From positions 29,985-93,984 of the forward strand of contig CAZWVM010000001.1 of NCBI GenBank assembly GCA_964637705.1: 64,000 nucleotides of DNA. The letters run 5' to 3'. The DNA comes from an uncultured bacterium (lineage in GTDB: Bacteria; UBA8481). Shown here in pieces: positions 28,901 to 62,267 of this stretch; within the stretch, counting starts at the first letter, position 1; the number at the start of each line of letters is the position of its first letter. The position numbers were made by a program, and so were the translations under genes. Below the pieces are notes generated by a model, which was not told the origin of the DNA, did no database searches, and worked only from the letters and a program-made list of their open reading frames with translations.

Positions 28901-31900
28901 TTGGCGATACCCGCGTGGGTGTTCATGGCGCCCTTGGGTTCCCCGGTCGAACCCGAGGTGTAGATGACGTAGGCCAGGTTCCACGGCTCGAGGCGGCGCG
29001 CCGGCGGCTCGGACGGGAGCTCGGACAGCGCGGCACGCGCGGTATCGAGGGCGATGACCGCTCCGCCGAATCCTTCGGCGGCCTCGGTCACGACGGGCGC
29101 CAGCCGCGACGAGGTCAGGATGACGGTCGGCCTCGCGTCCCGGATCATGAACGCGAGGCGCGGACGAGGCAGATCGGGATCGAGCGGGACATACGCCGCC
29201 GCCGCCTTCAAGGCCCCGTAGAGCGCCTCGACCATCTCGATCGAGCGCTCCAGGGCCACGCCGACGAGCGTCTCCGGGCCGACGCCCAGCGACCGCAGGC
29301 GATGCGCCAGCCGGTTCGCGCGGACATCCAGCTCGCGGTAGGTCATGCTCCCCGCGCCGTCCATCACCAACGCCGGCGCATCCGGCGTTCGCCGGGCCTG
29401 TTCCTCGAAGTGATCGATGATCGTCTTCTCGAGCGGGTAGTCGCGCCGCGTCGCGTTCCACTCCACGAGCACGCGCCGTTCTTCCTCCGCCGTCATCGCG
29501 CTCACGTCGCCGACCGGCGCATCCTCCCGCGCGGCCCTCACCAGCGTCTCCAGCACGGTCTCGAAATGCCGGAGGATCCGGCCTGCATCCGGCGCTCCGA
29601 TCCGTGCCTCGTCGAAGATGACGGCCACGTCGAGACGCGTGCCCGCGGTCACGACGACGCTCAAGGGGTAGTTGGTCCGCTCGAAGACCCCCACGTCCTC
29701 GACGCCGAGCCGACCGCATCGACCTCGGAGCGATTCGTCCACGGGATAGTTTTCGAGCACGACGAGGCTCTCGAAGAGTTCCGAGCCGCGCGGCAAGTCG
29801 GTGAATTCCCTGAGGTGAGCGAGCGGGTCGTGGGCATGGGCCTCGCGCGCGGCTTGCCGGGCCTGGATCGCCGAGAGCCACTCCGGGACCGCCGCGTCCT
29901 CCTCGATGCGCAGCCGGACCGGCACGGTGCCGATGAAGAGCCCGGCCATATCCCCGGAGCCGGAAAGATCCGCGGGCCGGCCCGCGTGGGCCGTGCCGAA
30001 GCAGACGTCGGTGCGGCCGGTCAGGCGCGAGAGGAGCAGGCCCCAGGCCGTGGAGAGGAAGGTGTGAAGCGTCACGCGGCGCGAGCGCGCCAACTCCCTG
30101 ATCTCGGCAAAGAGCCCGGGCGAAAGGGCGGCGCGGATCTCCCCCCTCCGCGACGCGCCTCGTCGCGGCTTCTCGAAGGGCAGCGGGGTCGGCTCGGAGA
30201 AGCCGCCCAGTTCCGCGCGCCAGAACTCCTCGGAGCCCGCGGCATCACGCCGCTCGTGCCAAGCCAGGAAATCGCTGAAGGGACGCACCGGCGGCAATAC
30301 CGGCTCGCGTCGTTCTTCGGCCGCCGCAAGATATTCCATCACGTCCCTCAGGACGTTCGCGAGGCTCCAGCCGTCGAGAAGAACATGGTGGCTGCTCCAG
30401 GTGAAATGCCACCGGTCCTCGGCAAGCCGCGCATCGGCAAGCCGCGCATCGGCAAGCCGCGCATCGGCAAGCCGCGCGAGCGTGAAACGAAGCGGCGGAC
30501 CCGCGGCCAGGTCGAAACCCGCGGCGCGATCCTCCTCCAGGAACGTCTCGATACGCGCGGTCTGCGCCGCCGCGTCGAGGCCGGACCAGTCCTCGTCCCG
30601 CCAGGCCGGCTCGGCATGCTTCAACTCAACGATCACGGGATCCCCGTCCGACGTCCTCCGTATGACCGACCTCAAGGCCGCGTGGCGCCTGATCGCGGCC
30701 TGCCACGCGGAACGGAAGGCCGCGGGATCGAGCGCCCCTTTGAGTCTCATCGCGACCTGGGTGAAATACATGTCCGGCTCCCGGGCCAGGAGCGCATGGA
30801 AGAGAATCCCCTCCTGGGCGGGCGAGAGACGGTCGATCGACTCGACATTGCGCCGGAAGATCGGTTCGGCGAGCAGGCGATCGAGTTCCGACAGGGCGAG
30901 AGGAATGCGGAAATCGGCGGGCGAGTAGCGGCCGGCGCCGGGCGCGCGGCAGGTTGCGACGATCGACGCGAGCGACTGGCGCAGGTCCTCGACCAGCGCC
31001 TCGACCCTCCCGCGGGCAAGAGCGCGCCCGTTGAAGGCGACATCGATCTTCATGTGCCCTCCCGCGAGCACCGCGCTCACCTCCAGCGCGTGGCGGCGGC
31101 GGCGCGACGGGGCGACCGAGAGCCCGGCGAGATCGGGAAGGAACCGGAGTCGGGATCCGGCCGGAAGAAGCGCATCGAGACGACCCAGGTAATTGAAGAC
31201 GACCGCGCCGCGGCGATCCGCACAGCGGCGATCCGCGCAGCGGCAATCCGCGCGGAGCCTCTCCTTGACCGCGATCAGGAAATCCTCGAGCGGGCCGGAG
31301 ACCGGGCCGGAGAGTTCCACGCGGGAGATCGAGGTGAACCAGCCCGTCGTGCGCGTCAGGTCCAGCTCCTCCCCTCCGCGATCACGGCCGTGCCCCTCGA
31401 TCTCGATCGCGTGGCTCCCCCGGCCGGTCCAACGCGTGAGCGCCTCCACGAGCCCGGCCACGATCGTCTCGGGCACCTGCAGGTTGAAAGCCTGCTGAGG
31501 TTCCGCGACGAGCGCGGCCGTGGTCTCGACATCGAGGACGAGGCCGACCTTGTCCTGGTCGCCGAAGGTTCCCGGGTCTCCGAGGAGCTCGCGTTCGTCC
31601 GCTCCGATGCCGCTCGGGGCCGACGCGTCGGAACCGGCCGTCGTCACGGCCCACTCCTGGTACGACGCGGTCCGGTCCGGGAGGCGGATGGCCTCCCCGG
31701 CCAGGACCTGGCGCAGGGCGGTGTCGAGGTCCTCGGCCAGGATGCGCCAGGAGACGCCGTCGATCACGAGATGATGGGCGACCAGGATCAGGCGGCGGGG
31801 CACGCCTTCCCGCTCGACCAGCGCCGCCCGGAAGAGCGGGCCGGTCTCGAGGTTCATCTCCTCGTTGAGCGCGCGCACGCGCGCCGCGGCGACCGGCGCG

Positions 31901-34900
31901 CCGGCCTCCTCGTTCGAGGTCGCGATGAGTTCCAGCCGCGCACCCGCCTCCGCGGCATGCCATTGCCGCCAGCCGTCCTCGGCCGCGGCGAACCTGAGGC
32001 GCAGGCTGTCGTGGTGATCGGCGACCGCCGCGACCGCGGCCCCGAGCGCGGCCGGCGGAACCGCGTCGTCGACCTCGAAGCCGACATGCTGGTTGAAATG
32101 CGCGATCCCCGGCGCGTCATCCTCGAAGAACCAGCGCTGGATCGGCGCCAGGGGCACCGCGCCATCCGGCCGCGCGAAGGCGCACGCGACCGACTTGTCC
32201 CCGCAGGCCGCGGCCAGCTCCGCCACGGTCTGGTGCTTGAAGAGCATGGCGGGGCGAACGTCGAGACCCGCGGTGCGGGCCCGGGCGACGATCCTCATCC
32301 CGAGGATCGAGTCGCCGCCCAGCGCGAAGAAGTTGTCGTGACGCCCGACGCGCTCGAGGCCCAGCGCCTCGCTCCACGCCTCGGCCAGCTGCGCCTCGAC
32401 CTCGGTCCGGGGCGGTTCGTGCTCGTGCCTCCCCTCGTCCCGGCCGGGCTCGGGCAGGGCCTTGCGGTCGATCTTGCCGTTCGGCGTCATGGGAAGCCGT
32501 TCCATCTTCACGAAGACCGGCGGCACCATGAACTCCGGCAAGCTCTTCCGGAGCGCGACCCGAAGATCTCCCGCATCCGCCGATCCGCTGAAGTAGCCGA
32601 CGAGCCGCTTGCCGCCGCCGGACTCCTCCCGCGCATGCACCACGCACTCCGCGACACCCGGCAGGGCGAGAAGGGCGTTCTCGATCTCGCCCAGCTCGAT
32701 CCGGAAACCGCGGATCTTGACCTGGTGATCGAGCCGGCCGAGATACTCGATCTGGCCGTCCGGCCACCAGCGGCCGAGATCCCCCGTGCGATAGGCGCGC
32801 AACGGTTCTCCCGGCGCGATCGTCACGTATCGCTCCGCCGTCAGCTCCGGCCGGTTCCAGTACCCCCTCGTCACGCCCGCGCCCGAGAGGTGGATCTCGC
32901 CCGGCACCCCGATCGGCACGGGCGCGCCCTCGCGATCGAGGATGAAGGCCTTCGTGTTCGCGATCGGTCGCCCGATCGTCTCGCGGCCCCCCGGCACGCG
33001 GCGTGCGAATGTCGAGTAGGTCGTGTCCTCGCCGGGACCGTAGAGGTCGTAGACGTGGCGCACGTGACCGAGCGCGTAGATGCCGTCGGCGAGACGGGCC
33101 TTCAGGGGCTCCCCGGCGAGATTCACGGTGATGACCGAGCGCGGCACGCCTCCCGACCGGAGCAGTTCGGCCATGGCCGAGGGCACGGTGTTGACGAGCG
33201 TGACACGCCCCGCGGCCGGGAGTTCCGGCAGGACCAGCGCATTCTCGGCGAGGATCACGGTCCCGCCGGTGACGAGCGGCAGGAAGATCTCGAAGATCGA
33301 GAGGTCGAAGCAGATCGAGGTCGAGAAGAGCGTGCCGCGGAGTTCCTCGGCCGTGAAGACGGTCCGCGCCCAGGCGAGGAAGGCCACGGTGTTCCGGTGC
33401 TCGATCATGATCCCCTTGGGCCGCCCCGTGGAGCCCGAGGTGTAGATGACGTAGGCGAGGTTTTCCGGCGTGATGCCGGGATCGAGCCGCGTCGCCGGCT
33501 CCCGCGCGATCGCGTCGGACTCCGCGTCGAGCGCCAGGAGGTTCGTGCCCCCGGGCAGGCCGGGCGCGAGATCCGAGCGCGTCACGATGATCTCCATCCG
33601 CGCGTCCTCCGCCACGAAGCGGATCCGCTCGGCCGGGTAGGCCGGGTCCAGCGGCACGTAGGCGCCGCCCGCCTTGAGGATCGCGAGGACCGCCACGACG
33701 AGATCCGCGGTGCGCGGCAGGCAGACGCCGACGAGCGTCTCGGGTCCCACGCCCCGCGCACGCAGGCGGTGCGCAAGGCGGCAGGCCCGAGCCTCGAGGT
33801 CCGCGTAGGTGATCTCGTTGCGGCCGTCGATGAGCGCGGTCTCGTTCGGATGCCGCGCGGCGCACGCCTCCAGGAGATCCATGATCGTCCGGTCTTCCGG
33901 CCAATCCGCCTCGGTCCGGTTCCACTCCACGAGAATCCGCTCCCGTTCCTCCGGCGCCATGAGGTCCATCCGGCCTATCGCCTCGTCCGGGTTCCGCACC
34001 GCCGACTCCAGGAGCCGGACGAGATGGCCGGCCATCCGCCGGATCGTCGCGGCATCGAAGAGATCGAGGGCGTATTCCCACTCGCCCCGGAGCCCCCCGG
34101 GCGTCTCCTCGAAGGAGAGATACATGTCGAACATCGAGCGAGTCCGCTCGGCCTTGAACGGCCGCAGCACGACCTCCTTCATGCGGAGCGAAGCGGGCGG
34201 CGTGTTCTGGAGCGCGAACATCACCTGGAAGAGAGGGCTGTGGGCGAGATTGCGCTCGGGCTGGAGGGCGGAGACCACGGCCTCGAAGGGAAGTTCCTGG
34301 TGCGCGTACGATTCGAGCGTCCCGGTCCGGACCCGCTCGAGAAGGTCGCGGAAGGAGACCGTGCCGTCGAGATCCGCGCGCAGGACGAGCGTATTGACGA
34401 AGAAGCCGACGAGGTTCTCGATCTCCGGCCGGTTGCGATTCGCCACCGGGCAGCCGACGAGAATCGTCTCCTGGCCGCTGTAGCGATGGAGGAGCACCTG
34501 GAAGGCGGCGAGGAGCGTCATGAAGAGCGTGGTGCCGCTCCCGCGGCCGAGCCCGCGCAGACGCTCGAGCAGTTCACCCCCGATCTCGAAGCGCTCCATG
34601 CCGCCCCGGAAGCTCTGCTCCGCTTGGCGCGGCCGGTCCGCCGGCAACTCGAGAACCGAGGGCGCCCCGGCCAGCCTCCGCTTCCAGAAATCCACCTCGG
34701 ACTCGAGACGATCCCCGGAGAACTCCTCCCGCTGCCGCCGCGCGAAACCGGCGTACGTGACGGGAAGTTCGGGCAGGACGGCGGGGCGACGCTCTAGCGA
34801 AGCCGCGTAGAGCTCGGTCAGCTCGCGGAGAAGCACGGCCACGGACCAGCCGTCCGCCGCGATGTGATGGAGGCAGAGGACCAGGGCGTGCCGATCGGTG

Positions 34901-35465
34901 CCGAGGCGGATGAGCGCGGCCCGCATGAGGGGGGCGGAGGCCAGGCTGAAGGGACGCGTCGTGATCTCGCCGACGAGGCGCTCGAGCTCGGACTCGGCGC
35001 CGGACGATCCGGCCAGGTCGATTCTCTCGAGCCGGAACGACGGATCGGGATCCACGACCTGCACCGCCCGGCCCTCGCGAACCTCGAACCTCGTCCGAAG
35101 AGGCTCGTGACGACGGACGATCGCCCGCAGGGCCTCCTCGAGCGCATCCGCATCGAGCGGACCGTCGAGATGCGCGCAGGCCGGGATGTTGTAGGTCGCC
35201 GAGGGTCCCTCGAGCTGGTCGAGGAACCAGAGACGCTGCTGGGAGAAGGAAAGCGGCGCCTCACCGTCGCCTCCCGGGCTCCCGCCGGGCGCGCCCCGGG
35301 GCGCCTCGGCCTTCAACGCGGCGACGAGTTCCTCCTTCGCGCCGGCGAGATGCTGCCGCAGCTCGTCCGTGAGCGCATGTTTCGGCGCGCGCACCCGAAG
35401 ATGCTCGCCCTCGAGCTCGATGAGGACGCCCCGCTCCGCGAGGAGCCGCCGCAGCTCGGACGTCG

Positions 35466-35469
<4 letters not shown>
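19945..35469 (-). CDS. Hybrid NRPS-PKS megasynthase (~5174 aa): Ndock-C-A-T-E / C-A-T / KS-AT-KR-ACP / C-A-T-Cdock
   Basis: The ORF track frame is open to 36018, but a GTG at ~35469 overlaps the upstream PKS stop (GTGA) and is preceded by GGAGGAG. That GTG begins a TubC-like docking domain, VTTSELRRLLAERGVLIELEGEHLRVRAPKHALTDELRQHL. Motifs: LHHIAADGWS (C), YVIYTSGSTGRPKG (A), FFALGGDSILG (T), AHHLVIDGVSW (E), SHHVLLDGWS (C), YVIYTSGSTGEPKG (A), VGGHSLKM (T), IAVIGMACRFPG...GHSGGDFAAACVAGI...TYLVTGGLGGVGRELA...FGRVGGDSLLAV (KS-AT-KR-ACP), LHHIIADGRS (C), YAIYTSGSTGRPKG (A), LGGHSLLAM (T). Confidence 0.85.
23195..23265 (-). repeat. 18-bp tandem repeats encoding the (AAPVAP)n ACP-to-C interdomain linker
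   Basis: ccggcgcaaccggcgcgg / ccggcgcaaccggtgcag; translation AAPVAPAAPVAPAEPVVPAG. Confidence 0.7.
30418..30480 (-). repeat. Perfect in-frame tandem repeat, 15 bp x 4 (CGGCAAGCCGCGCAT), encoding (LADAR)4 in a condensation domain
   Basis: Seen directly: ggcaagccgcgcatcggcaagccgcgcatcggcaagccgcgcatcggcaagccgcgcgag. The translation ARLADARLADARLADARLAED lies just N-terminal to the SHHVLLDGWS core. Confidence 0.9.
30870..32170 (-). other. Epimerization (E) domain following module 1 of the hybrid gene
   Basis: aa ~1100-1530 (real numbering): PIQRWFFEDDAPGIAHFNQ...AHHLVIDGVSWRILAEDL...VVFNYLGRLD. The next C domain (SHHVLLDGWS) has the expected DCL-type position. Confidence 0.7.
31205..31256 (-). 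repeat. Imperfect in-frame tandem repeat, 15 bp x 3 (GCGGCGATCCGCACA / GCGGCGATCCGCGCA / GCGGCAATCCGCGCG), encoding RCADRRCADRR in the E domain
   Basis: Seen directly in the sequence and in the track translation (DCRCADRRCADRRGAVVFNY). Confidence 0.85.
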
Positions 35470-39875
<4,406 letters not shown>

Positions 39876-39886
39876 CGACGCGCCGC

Positions 39887-40834
39887 TCACGGGATCCGCG
39901 TCCACAGGGGATCGAGCGCCGGCAGGGAACCCGAGGCCCGCATCCGTTCCATCCGCCCCGATGCGTCCGGTTCGAAGGCGAGGAGAATGCACGTCCCCTC
40001 CACCTCGAACGTCCTCTCCCCCGAGGGGAAGAGAAGGGCGCCGTCCGTCGCCCTCAGGAGACCGTCCGAGGCCGTGATCGTCATCTCGTTCCCGGTGCCG
40101 ACGGCGCGGTACGTGCCCGCGAAACGCTCCGCGCCCGCGATCCGCGGCGGGCGCGCATCCAGGGGCGGCAGTTCGAGGAAGGCGCAGATCCTGTCAAGGT
40201 GGCTCGCCCAGTCGCCGGCGTCGGTCTCGATCGCCAGGCACGGCATCTCCAAGCGTTGCGCGAGCGTATCGACGAGATCCTGGTAGCGGCGGAAGTATTC
40301 CTCGAGGCCGGGGAGACCCGTGAGCCCGAGCCGCGCCCCGAGCGGCGAGGCGGCGATGCGCGCGGAGAGGAACGGCGCGAACCACTCTCCCCTCTTCTCG
40401 TAGGTCCGGGGTAGCGCCGTCGCGAGGTCCGCATGGCGCAGGAGAACGAGCCTCGGGTCGCAGGGCCTCACGGTCGCGACGACCCGGTCGACGTACTTCG
40501 AAATCTCGTCGAGGGACCGATCGTTGAAGAAGAAAACGTGGAGCGGCGTCTGGAAGAAGGTACTCTCGAAGAGGGTCGTCGCGGTCGCGCCCGGTCCATT
40601 CACGTGGCGCGACCAATTCTCGAGAGCCAGCGCATGAAGCGCCGGGTCGAGCGGTCCGCCGTTGAGCACATCGACGACGCGCGCATGCTCGATGACCGGG
40701 TGCGGCGTCTCGTGCTCGTAGACCCAGCGGGCATCGCGCCCCAGCGAGCGAAGATGGCGGCAGAGGCGATGGGCGGTCGCGGACTTGCCCGTGCCGGGAA
40801 TCCCGTCGATGAAGATGAGCCGCGACGTGGTCAT
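39887..40834 (-). CDS. P-loop NTPase, nucleoside/nucleotide-kinase-like (315 aa), embedded between PKS genes
   Basis: Walker A LIFIDGIPGTGKSATAHRL at the N-terminus; ESTFFQTP and LLRHADLATALPRTYEKRGEWF resemble deoxynucleoside-kinase ERS/lid motifs. ATG at 40834 overlaps the FAAL-PKS stop (ATGA). There is a ~120 aa C-terminal extension with no recognisable motif. Confidence 0.7.
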   Translation of the reverse strand: MTTSRLIFIDGIPGTGKSATAHRLCRHLRSLGRDARWVYEHETPHPVIEHARVVDVLNGGPLDPALHALALENWSRHVNGPGATATTLFESTFFQTPLHVFFFNDRSLDEISKYVDRVVATVRPCDPRLVLLRHADLATALPRTYEKRGEWFAPFLSARIAASPLGARLGLTGLPGLEEYFRRYQDLVDTLAQRLEMPCLAIETDAGDWASHLDRICAFLELPPLDARPPRIAGAERFAGTYRAVGTGNEMTITASDGLLRATDGALLFPSGERTFEVEGTCILLAFEPDASGRMERMRASGSLPALDPLWTRIP

Positions 40835-43800
40835 TCGATCCCCACCAGGCTCTCCAGCCGGCGCAGGCTCTCCTCGAAGCCGTCGCCCCCGGCACGGGCC
40901 GAGGCGGCCGACGGCGCCGCGGCGCGCGGCGCGGGCCGGTCCACCGGGGCTGATGGCGCGATCGCGCCCACGAGATGATCCGCGAGCGCGTTGACGTTCG
41001 GGTAGTTGAAGACGGCAGTCGCGGGAAGGGAACGGCCCATCCCCTTCTCGAGGCGGCGCTTGAACTGCATGGCCGTGATCGAGTCCATGCCCATCGCGAA
41101 GAATCCCGCGTCCCGGTCGAGGTTCTCCGCATCGAGGCGCAGGACATCGGCCAGCGCGGCGGCGAGGTGACGCGCCAGCCGCTCGCGGGCCGCTCCGGGA
41201 TCGAGACCCTCAAGCGCATCCACGAAGGTCGCGCGCGGCGCCGCAGGCGCTATGGGCGCCGCAGGCGCTATGGGCGCCGCGGCCGTAGTCGCGACCGGCT
41301 GAGAACCCAGCCGGCTGAAGAGCGGACGCGAACGACGCGCCTCGTGCACCCCGCGGTAGGTGGCCCAGTCGATCCGCGCCGCGACGATGCGCGGCAGGCG
41401 CGATCCGGCTCGCCGCAGCACCACTTCGACCGCTTCGTCGACGGTCCAGAAAGCCAACCCCATCCGCTCGAGGTTCCCGGCGCCGCCCTCGTGGAGCATG
41501 CCGGCGCCGGAGACCGGGCCGAGCCCGATCGAGACGGTCGGCGCGCCGGCGGCCGAGCGACGAGCCGCGAAGAGGTCGAGGAAGTGGTTCGTCGCGACGT
41601 AGTGCGCCTGCTCCGCCGCGCCCCACGCGGCGACCATCGAAGAGAGGCAGGCGAAGAAATCGAGTGTCCGGCCGCGGGCGAGGCGGTCGAGGTTGAGGGC
41701 GCCGCGCGCCTTGGCGGCGAGAAGCGGTTCCAGGTCCTCGGCCGTCAAGCCGTCGATCCGCCGCTTCCGGCCCGATCCGGCGGCATGGATGATACCGCGG
41801 AGCGGCGGCAAGCCGTCCAGCGCCTGCTCCAGCGTCGCGACGATCGCCGTGTCGCCCACGTCCGCGGCCCGCACCGCGACGCGCGCGCCCAGCGCCTCGA
41901 TCGCCTCCACCGCCGCGCGACGTTCCGCCGTGGCGGCCCCGGTGCGACCGACGAGGAGGAGCTGACTCGCGCCCCGCCGGGCGAGACCGCGCGCCAGCCC
42001 GAGCCCCAGGCCGCCGAGGCCGCCCGTGACGAGGTAGGTCGCATCGCGGCGGATCGCGACCGGACGCGTATCCGGAACGCCCGGCTCGATCCGAGCCCCG
42101 TGCCGCGCGCCGGCGCGATACGCGATCTCCTCCTCGTCATCCCCCGAGCCGAGCTCGGCGATGATCTCGTTCGCACCGGCCTCGGCATCGAGGTCTACGA
42201 GCCGGACGACGACATCGGGATGCTCGAGAGGTATGTTGCGCCCGAGACCCCAGAGCCAGGACTGGCTCAAACCCGCGACGCGGTCGTCCGGCCGAACCTG
42301 CTGGGCATCGCGGGTCACGATGAGGAGCCGTGCGCCGTCCGGTCGTCCGGTCATTGCCTTCGCGAGTCCGGCCACGCGGAGGAAATCCTCTCCGCAAGGT
42401 TCAGGATCCCCGCCGCGATCCGGCGCGAGGAGGATCGCCGCAGTCGCATCCGCCGCCCTCGACTCGTCGAGGACGATCCCGCCGCGCGCCTCGATGAGCG
42501 CCGCGAGTTCGTTGCGCAGGGCTTCGCCCGCACCCGAGATCAGGCACGCTCCGGGAGCACGTTCCGGCCGCGATGCCGCCACCGCGGGCCACGCGACCGA
42601 AGAAAGGTTGTCGGAGGCTTCGTGCGGGCGGGGAACGGCAGCCGGTCCCTCGCCCCGTATCCAGTAGCGCCTCCGCTGGAACGGGTAGGTCGGCAGGGCG
42701 ATGCGTCGTCCGCCGCTCGCGCGGAGCAAGGCCGCATCGTCGATCGCGATGCCTCCGGCGAAGAGCGCGCCGAGCGCCAGGCGGATCTGCCGCGCCGCCG
42801 GTCGCTCGCGGTCGAGTGAGGCCGCCCGGCAGCGCCCCGTCCGCCCCACGTTCTCCTCGGCGATCCCGAGGAGCGTCGGGTGAGGTCCGATCTCGAGGAA
42901 GACCCGGTGACCGGCGCCGTCGAGCGCGCGCAGGTTCTCGCCGAAGCGCACCGTCTCGCGGAAGTGACGCACCCAGTACCCGGCCGTCGTCACCTCGTCG
43001 CCCGCCGCGCCCCCGCTCACGTTCGACATCAGGGGGATCCTCGGCCTCGAGAACCGGACGCCTCCCGCGAAGCGTTCGAACGCGGCCAGGATCGGTTCGA
43101 CGAGCGGCGAGTGGGCCGCGACCGGGATCTCGAGCCTCGTGCACTTGAGGCCGCGCGCCGCGAGCTTCGCGATCGCGGACTCGAGCGCGGCGCGCCGGCC
43201 CGAGAGGATCGTGTTGACCGGCGAGTTCGAGACCGCGACGGCGAGGTCCTCACCCTCCGGTATCGCCTCCCGGACCACCGCCTCGTCCGCCATGACCGCG
43301 GCCATGGCACCGTCGGGCGGCAGCGTCTGCATCAGGCGGCCGCGCTCGGCGACGAGCGCCAATCCGTCTTCGAAGGTCATCACGCCGGCCGCGCAGGCCG
43401 CCGCGTACTCGCCGGCGCTGTGCCCCGCGACGGCCGCGGGCCGCACGCCCCAGGAGCCCCAGAGCTCGGTCAGCGCGTACTGGAGGGCGAAGAGCGCGGG
43501 CTGGGACCAGTCCATGCGCTTCAGGCGATCGGTATCGCGATAGAGCGCGTCGCAGAGCGAGGCGTCGAGGAGCGGCCGCAGGATCGCGTCGCACCGGTCG
43601 ATCGTGCGGCGGAACACGGGCTCGCGCTCGTAAAGGTCGGCACCCATCCCCGGGTAGATCGAACCGTGGCCTGTGTAGAGGAAGACGACGCCGGGATCGC
43701 CCGGGAGAACCTCTCCCGTGACCAGCCCCTCGTGCTCCTCGCCCCGTGCCGCCGCCTCGAGCGCCGCCGCCATCGAGGCCGCGTTCTCCGCGACGACACC

Positions 43801-46800
43801 CAGGCGCTTCGGGCAACGCGAGCGGCCGAGGCTCGAGGTGACGGCGAGATCCGTGAGCGGGATCTTCGGGCGCTCGGCGAGGAACGCGGCGTAGCGGGCC
43901 GCGAGTTCCCGCAGGGCGGGTTCGGTACGAGCCGAGAGCCACAGGTGATTCCAGGTCGTGCCGTCTCGCCTCTCGTCCCGGTCCTCGCCCGGTCCTCCCT
44001 CCACGATGGCATGTGCGTTCGTGCCCCCGAAGCCGAACGAACTGACGCCCGCCAGTCGCTCACCCTCCCACGGCCGGCGCTCCGACGCGATCGTGAACGC
44101 CGTCCCCGCGATCGGGAGGCGCGGATTCATCGACGTGTAATGCAGTTGCCGGGGAATCTCGGCATGGCCGAGCATCAGGACGACCTTGATGAGACCCGCG
44201 ATCCCGGCCGCGCTCTCGAGGTGACCGATGTTCGCCTTCACCGACCCGATGATGCAGGGAGCCCCGTCCCGTCCCTCGCCGAGCGCCTCCCGGATCGCCC
44301 CGACCTCGATGGGGTCGCCGAGAGCCGTGCCCGTGCCGTGTGCCTCGACATAGCCGATCGCGCCCGGTTCGACCCCTGCGTCGCGGAGTGCGCGGCGGAT
44401 CACGTCCACCTGGGCCGGCCCGTTCGGCGCGGTCAGGCCGTTCGAACGGCCGTCCTGGTTCACGGCCGTGCCGCGAATGACGGCGAGGACGCGGTCCCCG
44501 TCGCGCCGGGCGTCCGCGAGGCGCTTCAGCACCACGATGCCGCACCCCTCGGACCTCACGTACCCGTCGGCCTTCGCGTCGAAGGCCTTGCACCGGCCGT
44601 CCGGCGCCATGAGGCCCGCCTTCGAGAAGGAGATGGTGTACTCGGGCGAGAGGACGAGGTTCACCCCGCCGGAGAGAACCAGGTCGCATTCGCCGCCGCG
44701 CAGGGCCCGAACGCCCTGGTGGAGAGCCACGAGCGAGGAGGAGCAGGCCGTGTCGACCGCGACGCTCGGTCCACGCAGGTCGAGGAAATAGGAGAGGCGG
44801 TTGGCGGTGACGGAGAGCGCGGTGCCGGTCCCGGCATAGATGTCCGTCCCGCCGTTGGACGCCAGCAGCATCCGGGCGTAGTCGAAGTTGCTCACGCCGA
44901 CGAAGACCCCGGTGTTCGTGCCGGCCAGGCCGTCGGCCGCCACGCCCGCGTCCTCCAGCGCCTCCCAGCTCACCTCCAGGAGCAGGCGTTGCTGCGGGTC
45001 CAGGCTCTCCGCCTCGCGCGGCGATAGCCCGAAGAAGTCGGCGTCGAAGTCGCCGACGCCGTCGAGAAAGCCGCCCCATTTCGTCGTCGTCTTACCCGTC
45101 GCGTCCGGGTCGGGATCGTAGAGCGCCGCCGCATCCCACCGGTCCGCCGGCACCTCGCGGACCGCGTCCACGCCGTCGCGCAGGAGGTTCCAGAACGATT
45201 CCGCGTCCGGCGCGCCGGGGAAGCGGCAGGCCAGGCCGATGACCGCGACCGGTTCGCGGTCGCCTGGATCCGTCGGTTTCGCTGAGGCACGGCGCGCTGC
45301 GCCCCCGCGCGTCTCTCCGCCCAGGAACGAGACGAGCGCCGAGACGGTCGGGTGGTCGTAGAGAAGGGTCGGCGGCAGATCGCGGCCGAGCATCGCGGCC
45401 ATTTCGCCCGAGACCTGGACCGCGCCGGCGGAGTCGAGGCCGTAGGAAGCGAAGGAGGCCCGGGGATCGATCGAGGAGGCGGGAATACCGAAGCGCCGCG
45501 CCAGGATCCCGAGGAGTTTCGTCCGGATGTCGTCGCCCGAGGCGGTCTCCCCCGCCCCGGCCGGCCCCGGCTCACGCCTGACCGCCACCGCCTCGAGCGT
45601 TCCGTCGAGGAACGCCTTCCGGCAGGCGCCGCGCATCACCTTGCCGCTCGAGGTCTTGGGCAGGGCGTTGGGCTTCAACAGGACGACGGCGTGCACGGGC
45701 ACGCCGTGTTCCTCGACGATTCTCTCGCGCAGGCGCCCCAGGACCTCGTCGGCGTCGATCCTGCGGAGCCAGGTCCGCTCGACTTCCTGGACGACGACGA
45801 TCCGTTCCCCCTCCCCGGTCTCGATCGCGAAGGCCGCGGCGCCGGAGGCGCGCAGGGCGGGGTGAGCCGTCTCCGAGGTCAGTTCCAGGTCCTGCGGGTA
45901 ATGGTTGAGACCGTTGACGATGATCATGTCCTTGATCCGGCCCGTCACGAAGAGCTCGCCGCCGTGCAGGAATCCCAGGTCGCCGGTGCGCAGCATCGGC
46001 CCCTCGCCGGAACCGGCGATCCGGCCGTCGAACACGTCCCGAGTCTCTCCGGGCCTGTTCCAGTAGCCGCCGGCCACGATCCGGCCCCCGACCCAGATCT
46101 CTCCGACCCGATCCTCCGGGCACGCATCGCACGACTCCGGTTCCACGATCCGGACCGTCGTCTCGGAGACCGGCACTCCGCAGCCCACGATCGGCACCGC
46201 GCCGGGTGCATGCTCAGCGATGGCCCGGACCCGGTGTCGCGCCAATTCCTCCGCGTCCACGTAGAGGACCGTGGCCGCCCGGTCCGCGGGATTCGTCGTC
46301 ACCTTCAGCGTCGATTCGGCGAGACCGAAGCCCGGGGTGAGAACGTTGCGCCCCAGGCCGCACGGCGCAAAGGCCTCGTGGAAACGGTCGAGCGTCTCGG
46401 CGCGCACCGTCTCCGCCGCGTTCAGGGCGACGCGCCAGCTCGAGAGATCGAGCCCGGCCTTCTGCTCGCCGGTGATCTTCTTCGCGCAGAGATCGTAGGC
46501 GAAGTTCGGCGCGGCCGCGTGGGTGCCGCGGTAGCGCGAGATCGCGGCCAACCACCGGCGAGGTCTCTGCAGGAAGGCCGCGGGCGGCATCATGACGCAG
46601 GTGAAGCCCATGAGGAGCGGCTGCAGGAGACCGTAGATCAGCCCCATGTCATGGAAGAGCGGCAGCCAGGTCACCATGACGCTTCCGGGCGCATGTCCCC
46701 AGTTCGCGTCCATGTCGCGGACGTTGTCGAGGATGTGCCGGTGCGTGACCATGACCCCGCGCGGCGCCGAGGTCGAGCCCGAGGTGTATTGCAGGAGCGC

Positions 46801-47280
46801 GAGCGTCTCCGGCCCGATCGCGGGCCGCTGCCACGCGGGGATCTCCTCCCCGCCCTCGGCATCGGTCGCGATCCAGTCGAGCGCACCGAGTTCCGGGTAG
46901 TGCGCGACCTGGGTGTCACGCGCCGCCATCACCCGTGTCGTGGTCAGGACCCGGCGCGCGCCGGCGTCGGAAGCGATGACCGGGAGCCGTCGGTCCGGCC
47001 GGAGACGGCCGGGCGGATAGCATGGGACCGGCACGACGCCGGCGTAGAGGCAGCCGCAGTAGGCGGTGACGAACTCGAGGCCCGAGGGATACAGGAGCAG
47101 GGCCCGGTCTCCCGTCATGCCCCCGGTCGCCAGGCGGGCCGCCAGGACCCGAGCCCGGTGATCCAGGTCACGGAAGGTCAGCCGGCCCGCTTCGGTCTCT
47201 CCGTCCTCCAGGAAGATGCAAGCCGTTCCGCCCGGGTCGGTTTCCGCCCGGCGCGCAAGGACCTCGACAACGGTTCTCAC
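40831..47280 (-). CDS. Loading/first-extension megasynthase, 2149 aa: FAAL-ACP-KS-AT-KR-ACP-Cdock
   Basis: ORF track 40831..47280; start codon is GTG. FAAL: LTFRDLDHRARVLAARL, LQYTSGSTSAPRGVMVTH, ILPKRGRGL-free long insertion region, GDLGFLHGGELFVTGR. ACP: YGLDSAGAVQV. KS: VIGLACRFPG...CSSSLVALH. AT: GHSAGEYAAACAAGV, VAAHSPL. KR: TYLVTGGLGGLGLGLARGL. ACP: FFAMGMDSITAM. C-terminal LRRLESLVGIE. Confidence 0.9.
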   Translation of the reverse strand: MRTVVEVLARRAETDPGGTACIFLEDGETEAGRLTFRDLDHRARVLAARLATGGMTGDRALLLYPSGLEFVTAYCGCLYAGVVPVPCYPPGRLRPDRRLPVIASDAGARRVLTTTRVMAARDTQVAHYPELGALDWIATDAEGGEEIPAWQRPAIGPETLALLQYTSGSTSAPRGVMVTHRHILDNVRDMDANWGHAPGSVMVTWLPLFHDMGLIYGLLQPLLMGFTCVMMPPAAFLQRPRRWLAAISRYRGTHAAAPNFAYDLCAKKITGEQKAGLDLSSWRVALNAAETVRAETLDRFHEAFAPCGLGRNVLTPGFGLAESTLKVTTNPADRAATVLYVDAEELARHRVRAIAEHAPGAVPIVGCGVPVSETTVRIVEPESCDACPEDRVGEIWVGGRIVAGGYWNRPGETRDVFDGRIAGSGEGPMLRTGDLGFLHGGELFVTGRIKDMIIVNGLNHYPQDLELTSETAHPALRASGAAAFAIETGEGERIVVVQEVERTWLRRIDADEVLGRLRERIVEEHGVPVHAVVLLKPNALPKTSSGKVMRGACRKAFLDGTLEAVAVRREPGPAGAGETASGDDIRTKLLGILARRFGIPASSIDPRASFASYGLDSAGAVQVSGEMAAMLGRDLPPTLLYDHPTVSALVSFLGGETRGGAARRASAKPTDPGDREPVAVIGLACRFPGAPDAESFWNLLRDGVDAVREVPADRWDAAALYDPDPDATGKTTTKWGGFLDGVGDFDADFFGLSPREAESLDPQQRLLLEVSWEALEDAGVAADGLAGTNTGVFVGVSNFDYARMLLASNGGTDIYAGTGTALSVTANRLSYFLDLRGPSVAVDTACSSSLVALHQGVRALRGGECDLVLSGGVNLVLSPEYTISFSKAGLMAPDGRCKAFDAKADGYVRSEGCGIVVLKRLADARRDGDRVLAVIRGTAVNQDGRSNGLTAPNGPAQVDVIRRALRDAGVEPGAIGYVEAHGTGTALGDPIEVGAIREALGEGRDGAPCIIGSVKANIGHLESAAGIAGLIKVVLMLGHAEIPRQLHYTSMNPRLPIAGTAFTIASERRPWEGERLAGVSSFGFGGTNAHAIVEGGPGEDRDERRDGTTWNHLWLSARTEPALRELAARYAAFLAERPKIPLTDLAVTSSLGRSRCPKRLGVVAENAASMAAALEAAARGEEHEGLVTGEVLPGDPGVVFLYTGHGSIYPGMGADLYEREPVFRRTIDRCDAILRPLLDASLCDALYRDTDRLKRMDWSQPALFALQYALTELWGSWGVRPAAVAGHSAGEYAAACAAGVMTFEDGLALVAERGRLMQTLPPDGAMAAVMADEAVVREAIPEGEDLAVAVSNSPVNTILSGRRAALESAIAKLAARGLKCTRLEIPVAAHSPLVEPILAAFERFAGGVRFSRPRIPLMSNVSGGAAGDEVTTAGYWVRHFRETVRFGENLRALDGAGHRVFLEIGPHPTLLGIAEENVGRTGRCRAASLDRERPAARQIRLALGALFAGGIAIDDAALLRASGGRRIALPTYPFQRRRYWIRGEGPAAVPRPHEASDNLSSVAWPAVAASRPERAPGACLISGAGEALRNELAALIEARGGIVLDESRAADATAAILLAPDRGGDPEPCGEDFLRVAGLAKAMTGRPDGARLLIVTRDAQQVRPDDRVAGLSQSWLWGLGRNIPLEHPDVVVRLVDLDAEAGANEIIAELGSGDDEEEIAYRAGARHGARIEPGVPDTRPVAIRRDATYLVTGGLGGLGLGLARGLARRGASQLLLVGRTGAATAERRAAVEAIEALGARVAVRAADVGDTAIVATLEQALDGLPPLRGIIHAAGSGRKRRIDGLTAEDLEPLLAAKARGALNLDRLARGRTLDFFACLSSMVAAWGAAEQAHYVATNHFLDLFAARRSAAGAPTVSIGLGPVSGAGMLHEGGAGNLERMGLAFWTVDEAVEVVLRRAGSRLPRIVAARIDWATYRGVHEARRSRPLFSRLGSQPVATTAAAPIAPAAPIAPAAPRATFVDALEGLDPGAARERLARHLAAALADVLRLDAENLDRDAGFFAMGMDSITAMQFKRRLEKGMGRSLPATAVFNYPNVNALADHLVGAIAPSAPVDRPAPRAAAPSAASARAGGDGFEESLRRLESLVGIE
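41235..41292 (-). repeat. 18-bp x 3 tandem repeat encoding (IAPAAP)2-TTAAAP linker before the C-terminal ACP of the loading gene
   Basis: ggcgccgcaggcgctatg x2 plus a degenerate third copy. Confidence 0.7.
45510..47280 (-). other. Fatty acyl-AMP ligase (FAAL) starter domain
   Basis: N-terminal ~590 aa of the loading gene, with adenylate-forming cores and a downstream ACP instead of a CoA-ligase context. This architecture is established for lipopeptide/lipoketide initiation. Confidence 0.75.
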
Positions 47281-47634: not shown

Positions 47635-48174
47635 CTAGATTTCCGGCAGTTTCGCGGCTTCCTTGCCCTTCTTCTGCTCCTGCATGTGGCTGGCGACCTT
47701 CTGTCCTTCCTCGAACTGGTCGATGAAGTACTGGTGCATCCGGGCCGGGTCGAAATCCAGGAGCGTGCCGCCCGTCTCGAAGTGCATGATGAAGACCTTG
47801 CCCACGGCATACGTCGTGGCTCCGGCGAAGATCGGCATCGAGACGGCCCCGATGAAGGTGCCGACGACGGGCACGAGCTTCAGGAGGCTCCCGATCGCCC
47901 CTTGAGCGATCGTGGTCGCCACGAGGCTACCGATGAGAGAAGCGATGATGGCCTTGCCCCGGTTCTCGGAATACTTGATGTCGTAGTGACCGGCGATCTC
48001 CTCGACCAGTTTCAACTGCACCGCGGTGACGGCGAGGATATCCGCGAAAGGATAGGGAATGAGCCCCGCACCCATGGCCCACCACATGTAATTCCGAGTC
48101 GCCTGCTTCGCCCGCGTTTCGCGGGAAAGCTCGGCGGCAGGATCCTTTTCCGGGTTGTCGTTCGTGCTCGTCAT
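47635..48174 (-). CDS. DUF697/YcjF-like small protein, paralogue 1 (179 aa)
   Basis: ORF track. Core YMWWAMGAGLIPYPFADILAVTAVQ...TYAVGKVFIMHFETGGTLLDFDP is shared with the two other paralogues. AGGAGA sits 5-10 nt upstream of the ATG. Confidence 0.7.
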   Translation of the reverse strand: MTSTNDNPEKDPAAELSRETRAKQATRNYMWWAMGAGLIPYPFADILAVTAVQLKLVEEIAGHYDIKYSENRGKAIIASLIGSLVATTIAQGAIGSLLKLVPVVGTFIGAVSMPIFAGATTYAVGKVFIMHFETGGTLLDFDPARMHQYFIDQFEEGQKVASHMQEQKKGKEAAKLPEI

Positions 48175-48240
48175 ATATCTCCTGAAAATTCTGCGCCCGG
48201 CGGCGTAAAAAGCAAGCGGAATTATCGTCGGGGATAATCA

Positions 48241-48269
48241 TTGACTCCCTCGAGGCCCGGGCGTACATT
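48241..48269 (+). promoter_or_regulatory. Candidate sigma70-type promoter TTGACT-N17-TACATT for the DUF697-small TM-secretin operon
   Basis: Read directly in the divergent 48175-48347 gap, ~80 nt upstream of the GGAGG-preceded ATG at 48348. Confidence 0.3.
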
Positions 48270-48347
48270 TTCCCCGTTCGAGGTCGATTTCCCATGGAGT
48301 TTCGCGATGGAGATTGGCCGAGCCTCAAAGACCCCCGGAGGTGCGTG

Positions 48348-48845
48348 ATGACAGAAACGGCGACAGTGGTGGAATCGAAGGACGCCAAGGCGAAGGAAAT
48401 CGTCAAGAACTACATGTATTGGACCATGGGAGCGGGGCTGATTCCCTATCCGTTGGTCGATCTTGCGGCCGTCATCGGAATCCAGATCAAGATGACCAAG
48501 GATTTGGCCGAACTGTATGAGGTTCCCTTCCGTGAGAACGCCGTGAAGTCGATCGTCGGATCGCTCCTGGGCGGCGTCACGTCCTCCTCCATCGCTTTCG
48601 GCAGCATCGGCCTGCTCGCGGCGAGCCTCGTGAAGATGGTTCCCTTCATCGGGACGGCCCCCGGTCTCGTCACCGTGCCCCTGATCTCCGGCGCCGTGAC
48701 CTACGCCGTGGGCAAGGTCTTCATCATGCACTTCGACACGGGTGGCACGCTCCTGGACTTCGACCCGGTGAAGGTCCGCGAGTATTTCCGCGAGTCCCTC
48801 AAGGAAGGCGAGAAACTGGCCAAGGAGATGAAGAGCTCCAAGTAG
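48348..48845 (+). CDS. DUF697/YcjF-like small protein, paralogue 2 (~165 aa)
   Basis: ORF track frame 48294..48845; start moved to the internal ATG at 48348 (MTETATVVESKD), preceded by GGAGG and matching the N-termini of the paralogues. Core NYMYWTMGAGLIPYPLVDLAAV...TYAVGKVFIMHFDTGGTLLDFDP. Confidence 0.7.
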   Translation: MTETATVVESKDAKAKEIVKNYMYWTMGAGLIPYPLVDLAAVIGIQIKMTKDLAELYEVPFRENAVKSIVGSLLGGVTSSSIAFGSIGLLAASLVKMVPFIGTAPGLVTVPLISGAVTYAVGKVFIMHFDTGGTLLDFDPVKVREYFRESLKEGEKLAKEMKSSK

Positions 48846-48941
48846 GCGTCAAGCGGGGCCATGCGGGCCTTTCGTGTCTTCCCTCGCGGAAGAGACGGAC
48901 GCCGCATGGCCCCGGTCGTTTAGGGAGGCAGGAGCGGACCC

Positions 48942-49127
48942 ATGATCAACGTCGTCGTCCCTACGCTCTACGTGGCACTGAGCCTCATGGTCGGGCTCCT
49001 GGGCAGGAAGAAGCTCCTCGGGTTCTGGGGATTCTTCCTGGGCTCCCTCATCCTGACTCCGGTCATGGGTTTTCTCGGCTTGATCTTCTTCGAAATGATC
49101 TCCCTCGTGGGAGAATCGAAAAACTGA
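48942..49127 (+). CDS. Small hydrophobic two-TM membrane protein (61 aa)
   Basis: ORF track. GGAGG/AGGAG RBS 7-17 nt upstream; GC3-rich codons; two predicted TM helices (VVPTLYVALSLMVGLLG; LGSLILTPVMGFLGLIFF). Confidence 0.5.
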   Translation: MINVVVPTLYVALSLMVGLLGRKKLLGFWGFFLGSLILTPVMGFLGLIFFEMISLVGESKN

Positions 49128-49173
49128 CGCGTTCCGGCCGCCGCGCGCGGACGCGATCCAAGGAGCGATTGCG

Positions 49174-50388
49174 ATGACGACGAGACTGATCGACGGGCTG
49201 AATCGCGCCGGCGCGTTCCGGCGCGGACTCGGGACCTGCCTGCTCGGGGCGCTCCTTCTCCTGGCCGGTTCCACGAGCACGACGGCCCAGGCCCAGGAAT
49301 CTCCCGCCCGCTATCGCACGGTCGTGTATTACCTCGAGAACGCCGACGCCGCCAAGCTCGTCACCGTCCTCAACGCCGTCTACAGCCCCGGCAGCGGCGG
49401 AGCCCTCGGGCTCGGAAACCAAGGCGTCTCCATCGTCGCCGATGTCGGTACCAATTCCCTCGTCCTGAGCGCGCCCGAGGAGACCATCGACGCGGTCCTG
49501 GAGACGGTCAAGAAGCTCGACATCGCCCCCTTCCAGGTGCTCATCGAATGCATCATCCTGGAAGTGCGGCTCGACGCCGCGAAGAACCTCGGCGTGGACT
49601 GGACCTGGAAGAACTCCAACGTGGACTTCGGCATCCGCGGGAACGCGCCCGGCGTGGGCGTTCTCGAGGCCCTCGCCTTCACGGGTCTCAAGCAGGGCGT
49701 GATCGGCGACCAGCGCACGCTCCAGGGGGTCATCCAGGCTCTCGTCCGCGACAATCGCACCCGCATCGTGGCCACGCCGCGCATCTTCGCGGCGAACAAC
49801 CGGGAGGCCTCGATCACGATCGGCGACAACGTCCCCGTTCTCTTGAACCAGGCCACGACCGTGGGCGGCGTGACGCAGAACACCTTCAGCTACACCGATC
49901 TCGGGATCAAGCTGGTCGTGACGCCCCACATCAACCGGCGGCGCCAGACCGTGCTCGAGGTCTTCCAGGAGATCAAGTCCTTCTACGACATGAACAACCT
50001 CCCCACGGGCGTCAACGTCCAGAACGCGAACCCCATCATCTCCACGCGCAACAGCCGCACCGTGGTCACACTCGGGGACAGCGAATCGGTCGTCATCGGC
50101 GGCCTCATCCGGACCGACCGGACGAGGTTGGAGAGCCGCGTGCCGGTCCTGGGAGATATCCCGATCATCGGCGCGGCCTTTCGTTCCAAGCAGTATCGCG
50201 AAGAGAAGACGGAACTGCTCGTCTTCCTCACCACGCGCGTCGTCACGAACGGCGACGAACTGCGATCCATGGTGAGCGAGCAGGTCGACGACTCCATCTA
50301 CATGGAACAGAGGGCCCAGGACTTCTTCAGCGACACGCACTCGATCCGGAACGGCGCGGGATTCGTGGAGAGTCACATCCTCAGGTAG
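49174..50388 (+). CDS. Secretin (GspD/PilQ/CpaC/pIV superfamily), 404 aa with signal peptide
   Basis: ORF track. N-terminal signal peptide. C-terminal secretin signature SVVIGGLIRTDRTRLESRVPVLGDIPIIGAAFRSKQYREEKTELLVFLTTRVV. Confidence 0.85.
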   Translation: MTTRLIDGLNRAGAFRRGLGTCLLGALLLLAGSTSTTAQAQESPARYRTVVYYLENADAAKLVTVLNAVYSPGSGGALGLGNQGVSIVADVGTNSLVLSAPEETIDAVLETVKKLDIAPFQVLIECIILEVRLDAAKNLGVDWTWKNSNVDFGIRGNAPGVGVLEALAFTGLKQGVIGDQRTLQGVIQALVRDNRTRIVATPRIFAANNREASITIGDNVPVLLNQATTVGGVTQNTFSYTDLGIKLVVTPHINRRRQTVLEVFQEIKSFYDMNNLPTGVNVQNANPIISTRNSRTVVTLGDSESVVIGGLIRTDRTRLESRVPVLGDIPIIGAAFRSKQYREEKTELLVFLTTRVVTNGDELRSMVSEQVDDSIYMEQRAQDFFSDTHSIRNGAGFVESHILR

Positions 50389-50425
50389 TCGAGCGCGCCG
50401 CGCCTCCCGGGGCGGTCGCGGCCGG
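50389..50425. terminator. Possible GC-rich bidirectional terminator hairpin between convergent secretin and binding-protein genes
   Basis: CCGCGCCTCCCGGGGCGGTCGCGG is an imperfect inverted repeat with no U-tract. Confidence 0.2.
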
Positions 50426-51586: not shown

Positions 51587-51593
51587 GCGCGGC

Positions 51594-53316: not shown

Positions 53317-53318
53317 GA

Positions 53319-59908: not shown

Positions 59909-60031
59909 CGGCTGACAGGATAATCCCGCAAGCCGCTCCGGGAAAGCCCGGGCGGCCGGGAACTCGACCTCGGGGCGTGGGGCGAGATCCCTTGGCGGGA
60001 CGGCGGGATCTGATATTCTGGCCTCGATGTC

Positions 60032-62212: not shown

Positions 62213-62267
62213 CCGTCCGGCGGCGCCGGGTTGCGGGGCGTATCCCGCGCAGCCTGCCCTTGATTCC

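Follow-up and report, generated by a model that had tools for sequence, protein, structure and literature searches.

The P-loop gene and its junctions

The 64,000-nucleotide stretch of DNA analysed here (contig CAZWVM010000001.1 of assembly GCA_964637705.1, positions 29,985 to 93,984, from an uncultured bacterium; hereafter the window) carries a polyketide synthase (PKS)/nonribosomal peptide synthetase (NRPS) gene cluster whose first gene begins with a fatty acyl-AMP ligase (FAAL) domain. Between the first two PKS genes of this cluster lies a gene for a 315-aa protein with a P-loop, and this protein, its relatives and its likely role are the subject of the present work. The features at the locus are as follows, where KS, AT, KR and ACP stand for the ketosynthase, acyltransferase, ketoreductase and acyl carrier protein domains.

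40831..47280, minus strand: upstream loading/first-module gene, FAAL-ACP-KS-AT-KR-ACP (Pfam)
40831..40834, minus strand: ATGA in which the start codon overlaps the stop of the upstream synthase gene (read from sequence)
40781..40804, minus strand: Walker A/P-loop GIPGTGKS, residues 11-18 (read from sequence)
39876..39886, minus strand: 11-nt spacer from the P-loop gene's stop to the ATG of the next PKS gene at 39873-39875 (read from sequence)
35466..39875, minus strand: downstream second-module gene, KS-AT-KR-ACP (Pfam)

The P-loop gene is the open reading frame (ORF) 39887-40834 on the minus strand, with its stop codon at 39887-39889. The GC content of the window is about 71%, and because numerous spurious ORFs overlap ORF 39887-40834, its GC content was examined by codon position. 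The values for codon positions 1/2/3 are 0.67/0.52/0.87, even over the whole length of the gene, and the flanking synthase genes have the same signature (0.74/0.54/0.88-0.89). On the basis of this third-position GC content, homologues at E-values of 1e-56 and beyond, and the confident fold described below, ORF 39887-40834 is a genuine coding gene.

The N-terminus of the protein, MTTSRLIFIDGIPGTGKS, bears a canonical Walker A motif. At the upstream junction, which reads GGTGGGGATCGAATGACC, the start ATG (40832-40834) shares an ATGA with the TGA of ORF 40831-47280, and GGTGGGGA precedes it. In the downstream gene the KS domain begins at residue 25 counted from the ATG at 39873-39875, and a dehydratase (DH) domain is absent from both module 1 and module 2, per Pfam. 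An earlier note on this DNA, made from the letters alone, had described a 315-aa Walker A protein between the loading synthase and the next PKS gene, coupled by an ATGA upstream and an 11-nt gap downstream; the ORF, the GIPGTGKS motif, the Pfam domains of the neighbours and both junctions as read in the sequence all agree with that description. The note had also deduced co-translation with the synthase. A shared operon and tight coupling stand, but co-translation itself is a reading of gene spacing only, and the wider gaps around the P-loop gene at a related Verrucomicrobiae locus (L007; 77 and ~50 nt) bear on it.

Fold, conserved residues and sequence family

An AlphaFold2 model of the full-length protein was built on 17 sequences and compared with other structures by Foldseek. 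The model has a predicted local distance difference test score (pLDDT) of 90.3 and a predicted template-modelling (pTM) score of 0.90, which indicates a fixed arrangement of two domains. These domains, together with the conserved residues discussed below, map to the window as follows.

40175..40834, minus strand: N-terminal domain of the nucleoside monophosphate (NMP)/deoxynucleoside kinase fold, residues ~1-220 (model, Foldseek)
39890..40150, minus strand: C-terminal lipocalin-like beta-barrel of the DUF3471 type, residues 229-315, ending in SGSLPALDPLWTR
40715..40717, minus strand: Glu40, following strand 2 in the motif RW-x-YE-x-E-x-x-HP, putative catalytic base or acid of the acceptor site (conservation)
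40565..40567, minus strand: Glu90, Walker-B-like acid that closes strand 3, with Ser as the next residue (conservation)
40391..40393, minus strand: Arg148, in helix 137-148, lid-like segment PRTYEKRG (conservation, model secondary structure)

The N-terminal domain has an NMP-kinase fold with a P-loop. Its top structural matches in Foldseek are all kinases, the best of them thymidylate kinases, and its structural relatives include chloramphenicol phosphotransferase (CPT) and a tunicamycin-resistance protein. The earlier note had called the protein kinase-like and proposed comparing its fold with kinase families; when this was done, no confident match to a non-kinase P-loop family appeared. What that note took for an unassigned C-terminal extension of 120 aa is actually a linker followed by a folded domain of ~87 residues (229-315). 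This domain is an eight-stranded lipocalin-like barrel as in DAP, Pab87, Rv0907, SurE and Ulm16, and it matches the lipocalin-like domains of these five proteins and of IS11. At the sequence level, residues 229-315 match DUF3471 (PF11954) with 17 bits (E 0.008), below the gathering score of 29.3, and among 82 sampled relatives 15 match the same model at E<=0.01 (best 4.5e-6). In thioesterases (TEs) of the penicillin-binding protein (PBP) type, the lipocalin-like barrel lines the substrate cleft and is needed for cyclisation (PMC11735501, PMC11601455). No solved structure spanning both domains was found by Foldseek (best TM-score on the query 0.48), and PDB sequence searches queried with the full protein, with the profile of the family and with that of the C-domain returned P-loop-level matches or noise only. 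As a separate observation on the barrel, the relatives P0002/P0165 (381 aa) have a low-complexity insertion of ~60 residues, rich in Pro, Ala and Gly, between its last strands, and P0166/P0167 (322 aa), which fall in the same 90% cluster, are without it.

Conservation was assessed in an alignment of 149 family members. The P-loop residues G11, G14, G16, K17 and S18 are conserved at 97-100%, as are W37 and E40; H45-P46 and W74 are conserved at 95-100%; position 90 is acidic (E/D) in 99-100%, and R148 is present in 99-100%. Within the PKS-linked clade described in the next section, K17, S18, E40, E/D90 and R148 are conserved in every member (100%). Judged by conservation, this set, with a Lys/Ser pair in the P-loop, an acid following strand 2, an acid of Walker B type and an arginine in the lid, would be the pattern expected of an active P-loop phosphotransferase, with the putative roles of the individual residues carried over by analogy from the enzymology of deoxynucleoside kinases, CPT and shikimate kinases. 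For E40 the putative role is that of the equivalently placed acid in those three groups of enzymes. In the DRY and ERS motifs of thymidylate and deoxynucleoside kinases, an arginine follows the acid that corresponds to E90. In the present family, the residue after position 90 is Ser in 53-77% and Gly in 15-35%, and Arg is not among the common residues; the DRY/ERS arginine is therefore missing, and the catalytic geometry is not simply transferable from the thymidylate and deoxynucleoside kinases. The dNK-like ERS segment that the earlier note saw in the window protein does not survive this comparison, as the equivalent position reads F-E90-S91.

A word-indexed protein search retrieved 5 relatives of the window protein, or 17 when a profile was used; an exhaustive profile search retrieved 2019 cluster representatives (50% identity) at E<=1e-3 and 461 at E<=1e-30. 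Among the 150 matches listed of these 2019, nearly all are 290-350 aa long and aligned end to end, and the protein therefore belongs to a large, unnamed two-domain family. Pfam returned only sub-threshold P-loop matches for the window protein (AAA_16, AAA_18 and AAA_33). The sole curated model to recognise the kinase domain beyond its P-loop is NF005250 (PRK06761, 'hypothetical protein'), against which the window protein scores 63.2 bits (E 1.8e-17) with an equivalog cut-off of 270 bits, i.e., it is homologous but outside the equivalog. All 82 of the sampled family members match this model (best 2.5e-38). NF005250 has 282 positions, and its match in the window protein stops at residue 218, short of the barrel. 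No published work on PRK06761 was found.

Among models of named kinase families, TIGR00041 (thymidylate kinase) gives 14.1 bits with the window protein (cut-off 83.25). Neither PF02223 (thymidylate kinase) nor PF01712 (deoxynucleoside kinase) has a match in it, though 23 of the 82 relatives match the former weakly and four match the latter. PF07931 (chloramphenicol phosphotransferase-like) and PF00144 likewise have no match in the window protein, and nor does PF01636 (APH); the fold is a Rossmann-like P-loop fold and not the bilobed protein-kinase-like one. The family profile was also compared by hhalign with single reference sequences, a comparison that gives leads only: with E. coli Tmk the P-loop alone aligns, with human dCK 21 P-loop columns only, and with CPT 93 columns at 9.7% probability. 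Some relatives are labelled 'thymidylate kinase' by JGI. The protein is kinase-like in fold, yet by sequence it is no member of the thymidylate kinases, deoxynucleoside kinases, CPT, adenosine 5'-phosphosulfate (APS) kinases or zeta family.

Two other identities were considered and dropped. A STAND/AAA_16/NACHT protein had been raised by the weak Pfam matches, which are confined to the P-loop segment of a protein with an NMP-kinase-like fold, and a sulfotransferase, the fold of which is kinase-like, does not fit the canonical GxxGxGKS Walker A or the top structural matches. A tblastn search against plasmids gave no match. Neither a structure nor a publication describing the combination of a kinase with a DUF3471-type barrel, or the PKS-embedded clade, was found, and the same holds for a literature description of this FAAL-PKS cluster.

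A clade linked to FAAL-PKS clusters

Of 168 collected proteins, 17 end in the motif G-x-[LIVMF]-P-x-[LIVMF]-x3-W-x-R, which the window protein carries as SGSLPALDPLWTR. The L007 protein, read from DNA, terminates likewise (SGALPGLARRWLRV), and a single 46-member subtree holds the window protein, P0002, P0012 and the L007 protein (neighbour joining on p-distances). Contexts of the motif-bearing clade were examined in eight lineages. FAAL-PKS genes or their accessory genes adjoin the motif-bearing member in all eight, and in six its gene separates the first PKS gene from the second:

Window: wedged between the first two PKS genes
L001/L034/L035 (P0002/P0165): FAAL-PKS, P-loop gene, KS-AT-KR-ACP, TubC_N-NRPS; gene order of the window, with 4-nt overlaps on both sides
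L007/L015/L017 (Verrucomicrobiae metagenome-assembled genome and bog metagenomes): FAAL-KS-AT-KR-ACP, P-loop gene, KS-KR-ACP, KS-AT-KR-ACP, KS...; gaps of 77 and ~50 nt
P0056 contig: Band 7, binding protein, TE, MbtH, FAAL-PKS, P-loop gene, next large gene
L036 (P0089): KR-ACP, P-loop gene, KS; overlaps on both sides
L038 (P0062): KR-ACP, P-loop gene, KS
L003 (P0012): divergent from FAAL-PKS; adjoins MbtH, thioesterase, S8 peptidase and phosphopantetheinyl transferase (PPTase)
L037 (P0076): adjoins a ParA-like gene, two DUF697 genes and a type II TE; transposase immediately downstream

In contrast, no PKS/NRPS domains lie within up to 10 kb of twelve loci whose family member lacks the motif (L002, L004/L005, L006, L008-L013, L016, L018 and L019). 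The neighbours at these loci are mixed, with ABC exporters, a PF00144 protein, peptidases, STAND/TIR proteins and an integrase, and no common partner gene emerged among the immediate neighbours of ten family members outside biosynthetic gene clusters. A specific clade of the family has thus been recruited to FAAL-primed PKS clusters, where its members usually sit wedged between the first and second PKS genes.

The clusters themselves are homologous, with FAALs 58-76% and first KS domains 67-83% identical between the other lineages and the window. The repeated wedge therefore represents retention over long divergence, across phyla, and not independent invention. The placement is selected rather than accidental, as the same wedge is found in five other lineages, the Verrucomicrobiae genome included. 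All of the clusters have in common a FAAL-loaded chain and early KR-containing modules without DH (a FAAL-KS-AT-KR-ACP head); later modules vary, with NRPS in the window and L034 and additional PKS modules in L007. Between the window and L034, whose cluster is orthologous in other respects, the P-loop protein (10001-11146 in L034) is only ~40% identical, module 1 is 76-83% identical and module 2 ~50-53%. The ~40% identity would reflect either very fast evolution of the P-loop protein or a recombination boundary where the first gene ends.

We also observed features of individual loci. In L003 (9570-10004) and on the P0003 contig (623-1108), the P-loop gene is directly preceded by a small gene of ~145-160 aa, one with no match in Pfam, and the two overlap by 4 nt at the P-loop gene's start. 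On two metagenome contigs (L004, 1711-4250; L005, 2019-4552), a motif-less member lies directly 3' of a PF00144 beta-lactamase-family gene. The C-terminus of this neighbour (residues 386-467) aligns weakly by hhalign (E 0.0018, probability 15%) to the barrel of the kinase, and the two adjacent genes may, to judge from their sequences, carry the same DUF3471-type domain.

In the window, the assembly line continues after module 2 with a PKS/NRPS hybrid gene that has a TubC_N docking domain (19945-35469), then an NRPS gene (8948-19948), and then a further PKS module (2685-8951). A frame without a stop codon at positions 1-~2690 (minus strand) runs past the window start and encodes a TubC_N dock-C-A portion of an NRPS; the assembly line therefore extends past the window, and the cluster is incomplete there. 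The TubC_N docking domains and the GC content of about 71% would hint at Myxococcota as the source, as a guess only. The usual order of domains is KS-AT-DH-ER-KR-ACP (ER, enoylreductase). In the last complete PKS gene, 2685-8951 (minus strand), the Pfam order is KS-AT-KR-DH-ER-ACP, with KR at residues 1120-1303 before DH (1367-1641) and ER (1673-1964).

The cluster is flanked in the window by two DUF697 genes, a binding protein, a Band 7 protein, a type II TE, a ParA-like ATPase and an ABC exporter. Much of this set recurs beside the kinase clade in unrelated samples (window 47635-55326; L037 1-3064; P0056 contig), namely the two DUF697 genes, a ParA-like AAA_31/CbiA ATPase, Band 7/SPFH, a periplasmic binding protein and the type II thioesterase, which points to a conserved module, perhaps associated with the membrane, that accompanies these FAAL-PKS clusters. 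The type II thioesterase ORF of the window, 52540-53790 (minus strand), encodes 416 aa from its first start codon, with the Thioesterase domain only from residue 167, so that either the true start is later or the protein has an N-terminal extension. A Sfp-type PPTase (AASDHPPT_N + ACPS) is encoded at ~59168-59830 (minus strand), the 3' end of ORF 59168-62275 (minus strand). The remainder of this ORF is probably non-coding; on the plus strand opposite it lies a Cache-HAMP-adenylate/guanylate cyclase gene (60032-62212).

Proposed function and comparison with known systems

Since its relatives occupy the same place in related clusters of the antibiotic type from different bacteria, the P-loop protein is probably an ATP-using enzyme dedicated to tailoring or self-protection. 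Our preferred reading goes further, and we put it forward tentatively, giving it somewhat less than an even chance of being right: a pathway-dedicated, ATP-dependent small-molecule phosphotransferase that acts on the hydroxy-fatty-acyl part of the product. In the kinase domain, K17/S18 and the Walker-B-like E90 would hold Mg-ATP, the lid arginine R148 would stabilise the phosphate in transfer, and E40 would activate the acceptor hydroxyl. The barrel would pack on the kinase domain and offer a surface to which a bulky acceptor, a lipid or lipopeptide, could bind. The FAAL-loaded chain, once extended by the KR-containing modules, would have a 3-hydroxy or 3,5-dihydroxy acyl head, and a hydroxyl on this head is the most likely acceptor because the FAAL/KR chemistry alone is common to all clade-bearing clusters. 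This would give a phospho-lipopeptide, which would be either the end product or a masked form that protects the producer. For the latter there is a precedent in a myxobacterial PKS/NRPS cluster, where ComG phosphorylates a PKS-derived hydroxyl of corramycin for self-protection (PMC10996006). By analogy, both ComG and CPT would be precedents for a masking or self-protection role here. We infer the kinase activity itself, and likewise the residue roles, a barrel that packs over the active site, which group is the acceptor and when it is modified.

Several points weigh against the phosphotransferase we propose. The DRY/ERS arginine is absent, and a capping of the acceptor site by the barrel is conjecture. 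No characterised family member and no solved or named homologue was found. The low identity of the P-loop protein relative to module 1 could indicate relaxed constraint. The portion of the cluster that falls within the window, where the cluster is incomplete, showed no gene for a phosphatase, a lyase or any other phosphate-handling function.

The position of the gene invites an alternative in which the kinase acts in trans on the assembly line, phosphorylating the beta-hydroxyl of the 3-hydroxyacyl chain tethered to the module-1 ACP before or during its transfer to module 2, with the phosphate either retained or used as a leaving group for a DH-independent dehydration. Suggested analogues for the latter are the sulfonation by the CurM sulfotransferase (ST) domain and the phosphorylation-elimination of class III/IV lanthipeptide synthetases. 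In six lineages the gene keeps its place after the module-1 ACP and before the module-2 KS, mostly with overlapping or nearly overlapping start and stop codons, modules 1 and 2 both lack DH, and a related barrel occurs in SurE and Ulm16, which are trans-acting enzymes that use carrier-protein-bound substrates. However, the clusters are homologous and the position may be merely inherited; the L003 gene is divergently transcribed, outside the PKS operon, the L007 gene is set apart by its two gaps, no lyase or eliminase partner was seen, and most family members have no carrier protein nearby. We consider this alternative unlikely, and a shade less likely still its more specific form, an in-line PKS kinase whose SurE-like barrel would engage the carrier-bound chain, with the phosphate kept (giving a phospholipopeptide) or lost in DH-independent olefin formation. 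Just as unlikely as on-line phosphorylation, in our estimate, is an ATPase or nucleotide-binding adaptor that transfers no group to a metabolite and instead organises or gates the assembly line, by binding the synthases, e.g., at an ACP1/KS2 docking interface, or by linking the line to the membrane-associated DUF697, Band 7 and ParA-like proteins. An adaptor would be in keeping with the conserved wedge, with the co-occurrence of the same accessory families in the window, L037 and the P0056 contig, and with a P-loop sequence that evolves fast relative to module 1. Set against these are the fold and the E40/R148 pattern, which are those of a phosphotransferase and not of a P-loop switch or motor ATPase, and the fact that most family members stand alone in unrelated contexts with no synthase to bind.

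The family as a whole is large and mostly found outside biosynthetic clusters, some of its members adjoin ABC exporters (L002) or PF00144 beta-lactamase-family genes (L004/L005), and CPT and the tunicamycin-resistance protein are among its structural relatives. All of this would suit a general xenobiotic- or antibiotic-resistance kinase, from a broad family of soil bacteria, that hitch-hikes in the operon and acts on something other than the cluster's product. Nevertheless, the clade with its own C-terminal motif is tied to FAAL-PKS genes in 8/8 lineages as against 0/12 motif-less loci, which argues for a pathway-specific role, and we regard a hitch-hiking resistance kinase as more doubtful than either on-line phosphorylation or an adaptor. 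The least credible candidate is a divergent nucleotide kinase, i.e., a thymidylate or deoxynucleoside kinase paralogue for nucleotide supply or salvage. Thymidylate kinases are indeed the best structural matches, and some members carry the JGI label or match Pfam and TIGR models weakly; the TIGR00041 score of the window protein, however, is far below the cut-off, only the P-loop aligns with the Tmk and dCK references, the DRY/ERS arginine is absent, and a nucleotide kinase would give no rationale for a lipocalin-like domain or for PKS linkage.

If the proposed phosphotransferase is real, it would represent a new family of small-molecule kinases, with ~2000 clusters at 50% identity, in which a P-loop kinase domain is joined to a PBP-associated lipocalin-like barrel. 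Widespread FAAL-primed PKS(/NRPS) clusters, in the high-GC organism of the window as well as in Verrucomicrobiae, would then yield phosphorylated lipids, lipopeptides or intermediates, a modification that standard structure prediction in genome mining would miss and for which the C-terminal clade motif and the wedge position would be a simple mining handle. It would also offer a testable case of a DUF3471 barrel reused for substrate binding outside the serine hydrolases. Should the kinase instead act on-line, it would be a new on-line tailoring step and would give the ~2000-cluster kinase-barrel family its first function.

Compared with known systems, the window protein shares the NMP-kinase fold with thymidylate and deoxynucleoside kinases; in sequence, the likeness is confined to the P-loop and lies below every curated cut-off, and the window protein differs in lacking the DRY/ERS arginine and in having the added C-terminal barrel. 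Among P-loop resistance proteins such as CPT and the TmrB-like proteins, CPT is a single-domain protein and is not encoded in a synthase operon, unlike the window protein. The DUF3471 barrel is otherwise known from PBP-fold hydrolases (DAP, Pab87, Rv0907 and IS11) and from the NRPS cyclases SurE and Ulm16, where it follows a serine-hydrolase domain, whereas here it follows a P-loop kinase domain; as it has no catalytic PBP domain, the window protein is not a PBP-type thioesterase. The closest functional precedent is ComG, the corramycin kinase of Corallococcus coralloides, which is likewise a kinase within a PKS/NRPS cluster (PMC10996006). Homology to ComG was considered and dropped, since the ComG fold, the bilobed one of APH and protein kinases (PF01636), bears no relation to the P-loop fold of the window protein. 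ComG is thus an analogue and not a homologue, and it is in their likely role that ComG, with its APH fold, and CPT, with its P-loop fold, resemble the window protein.

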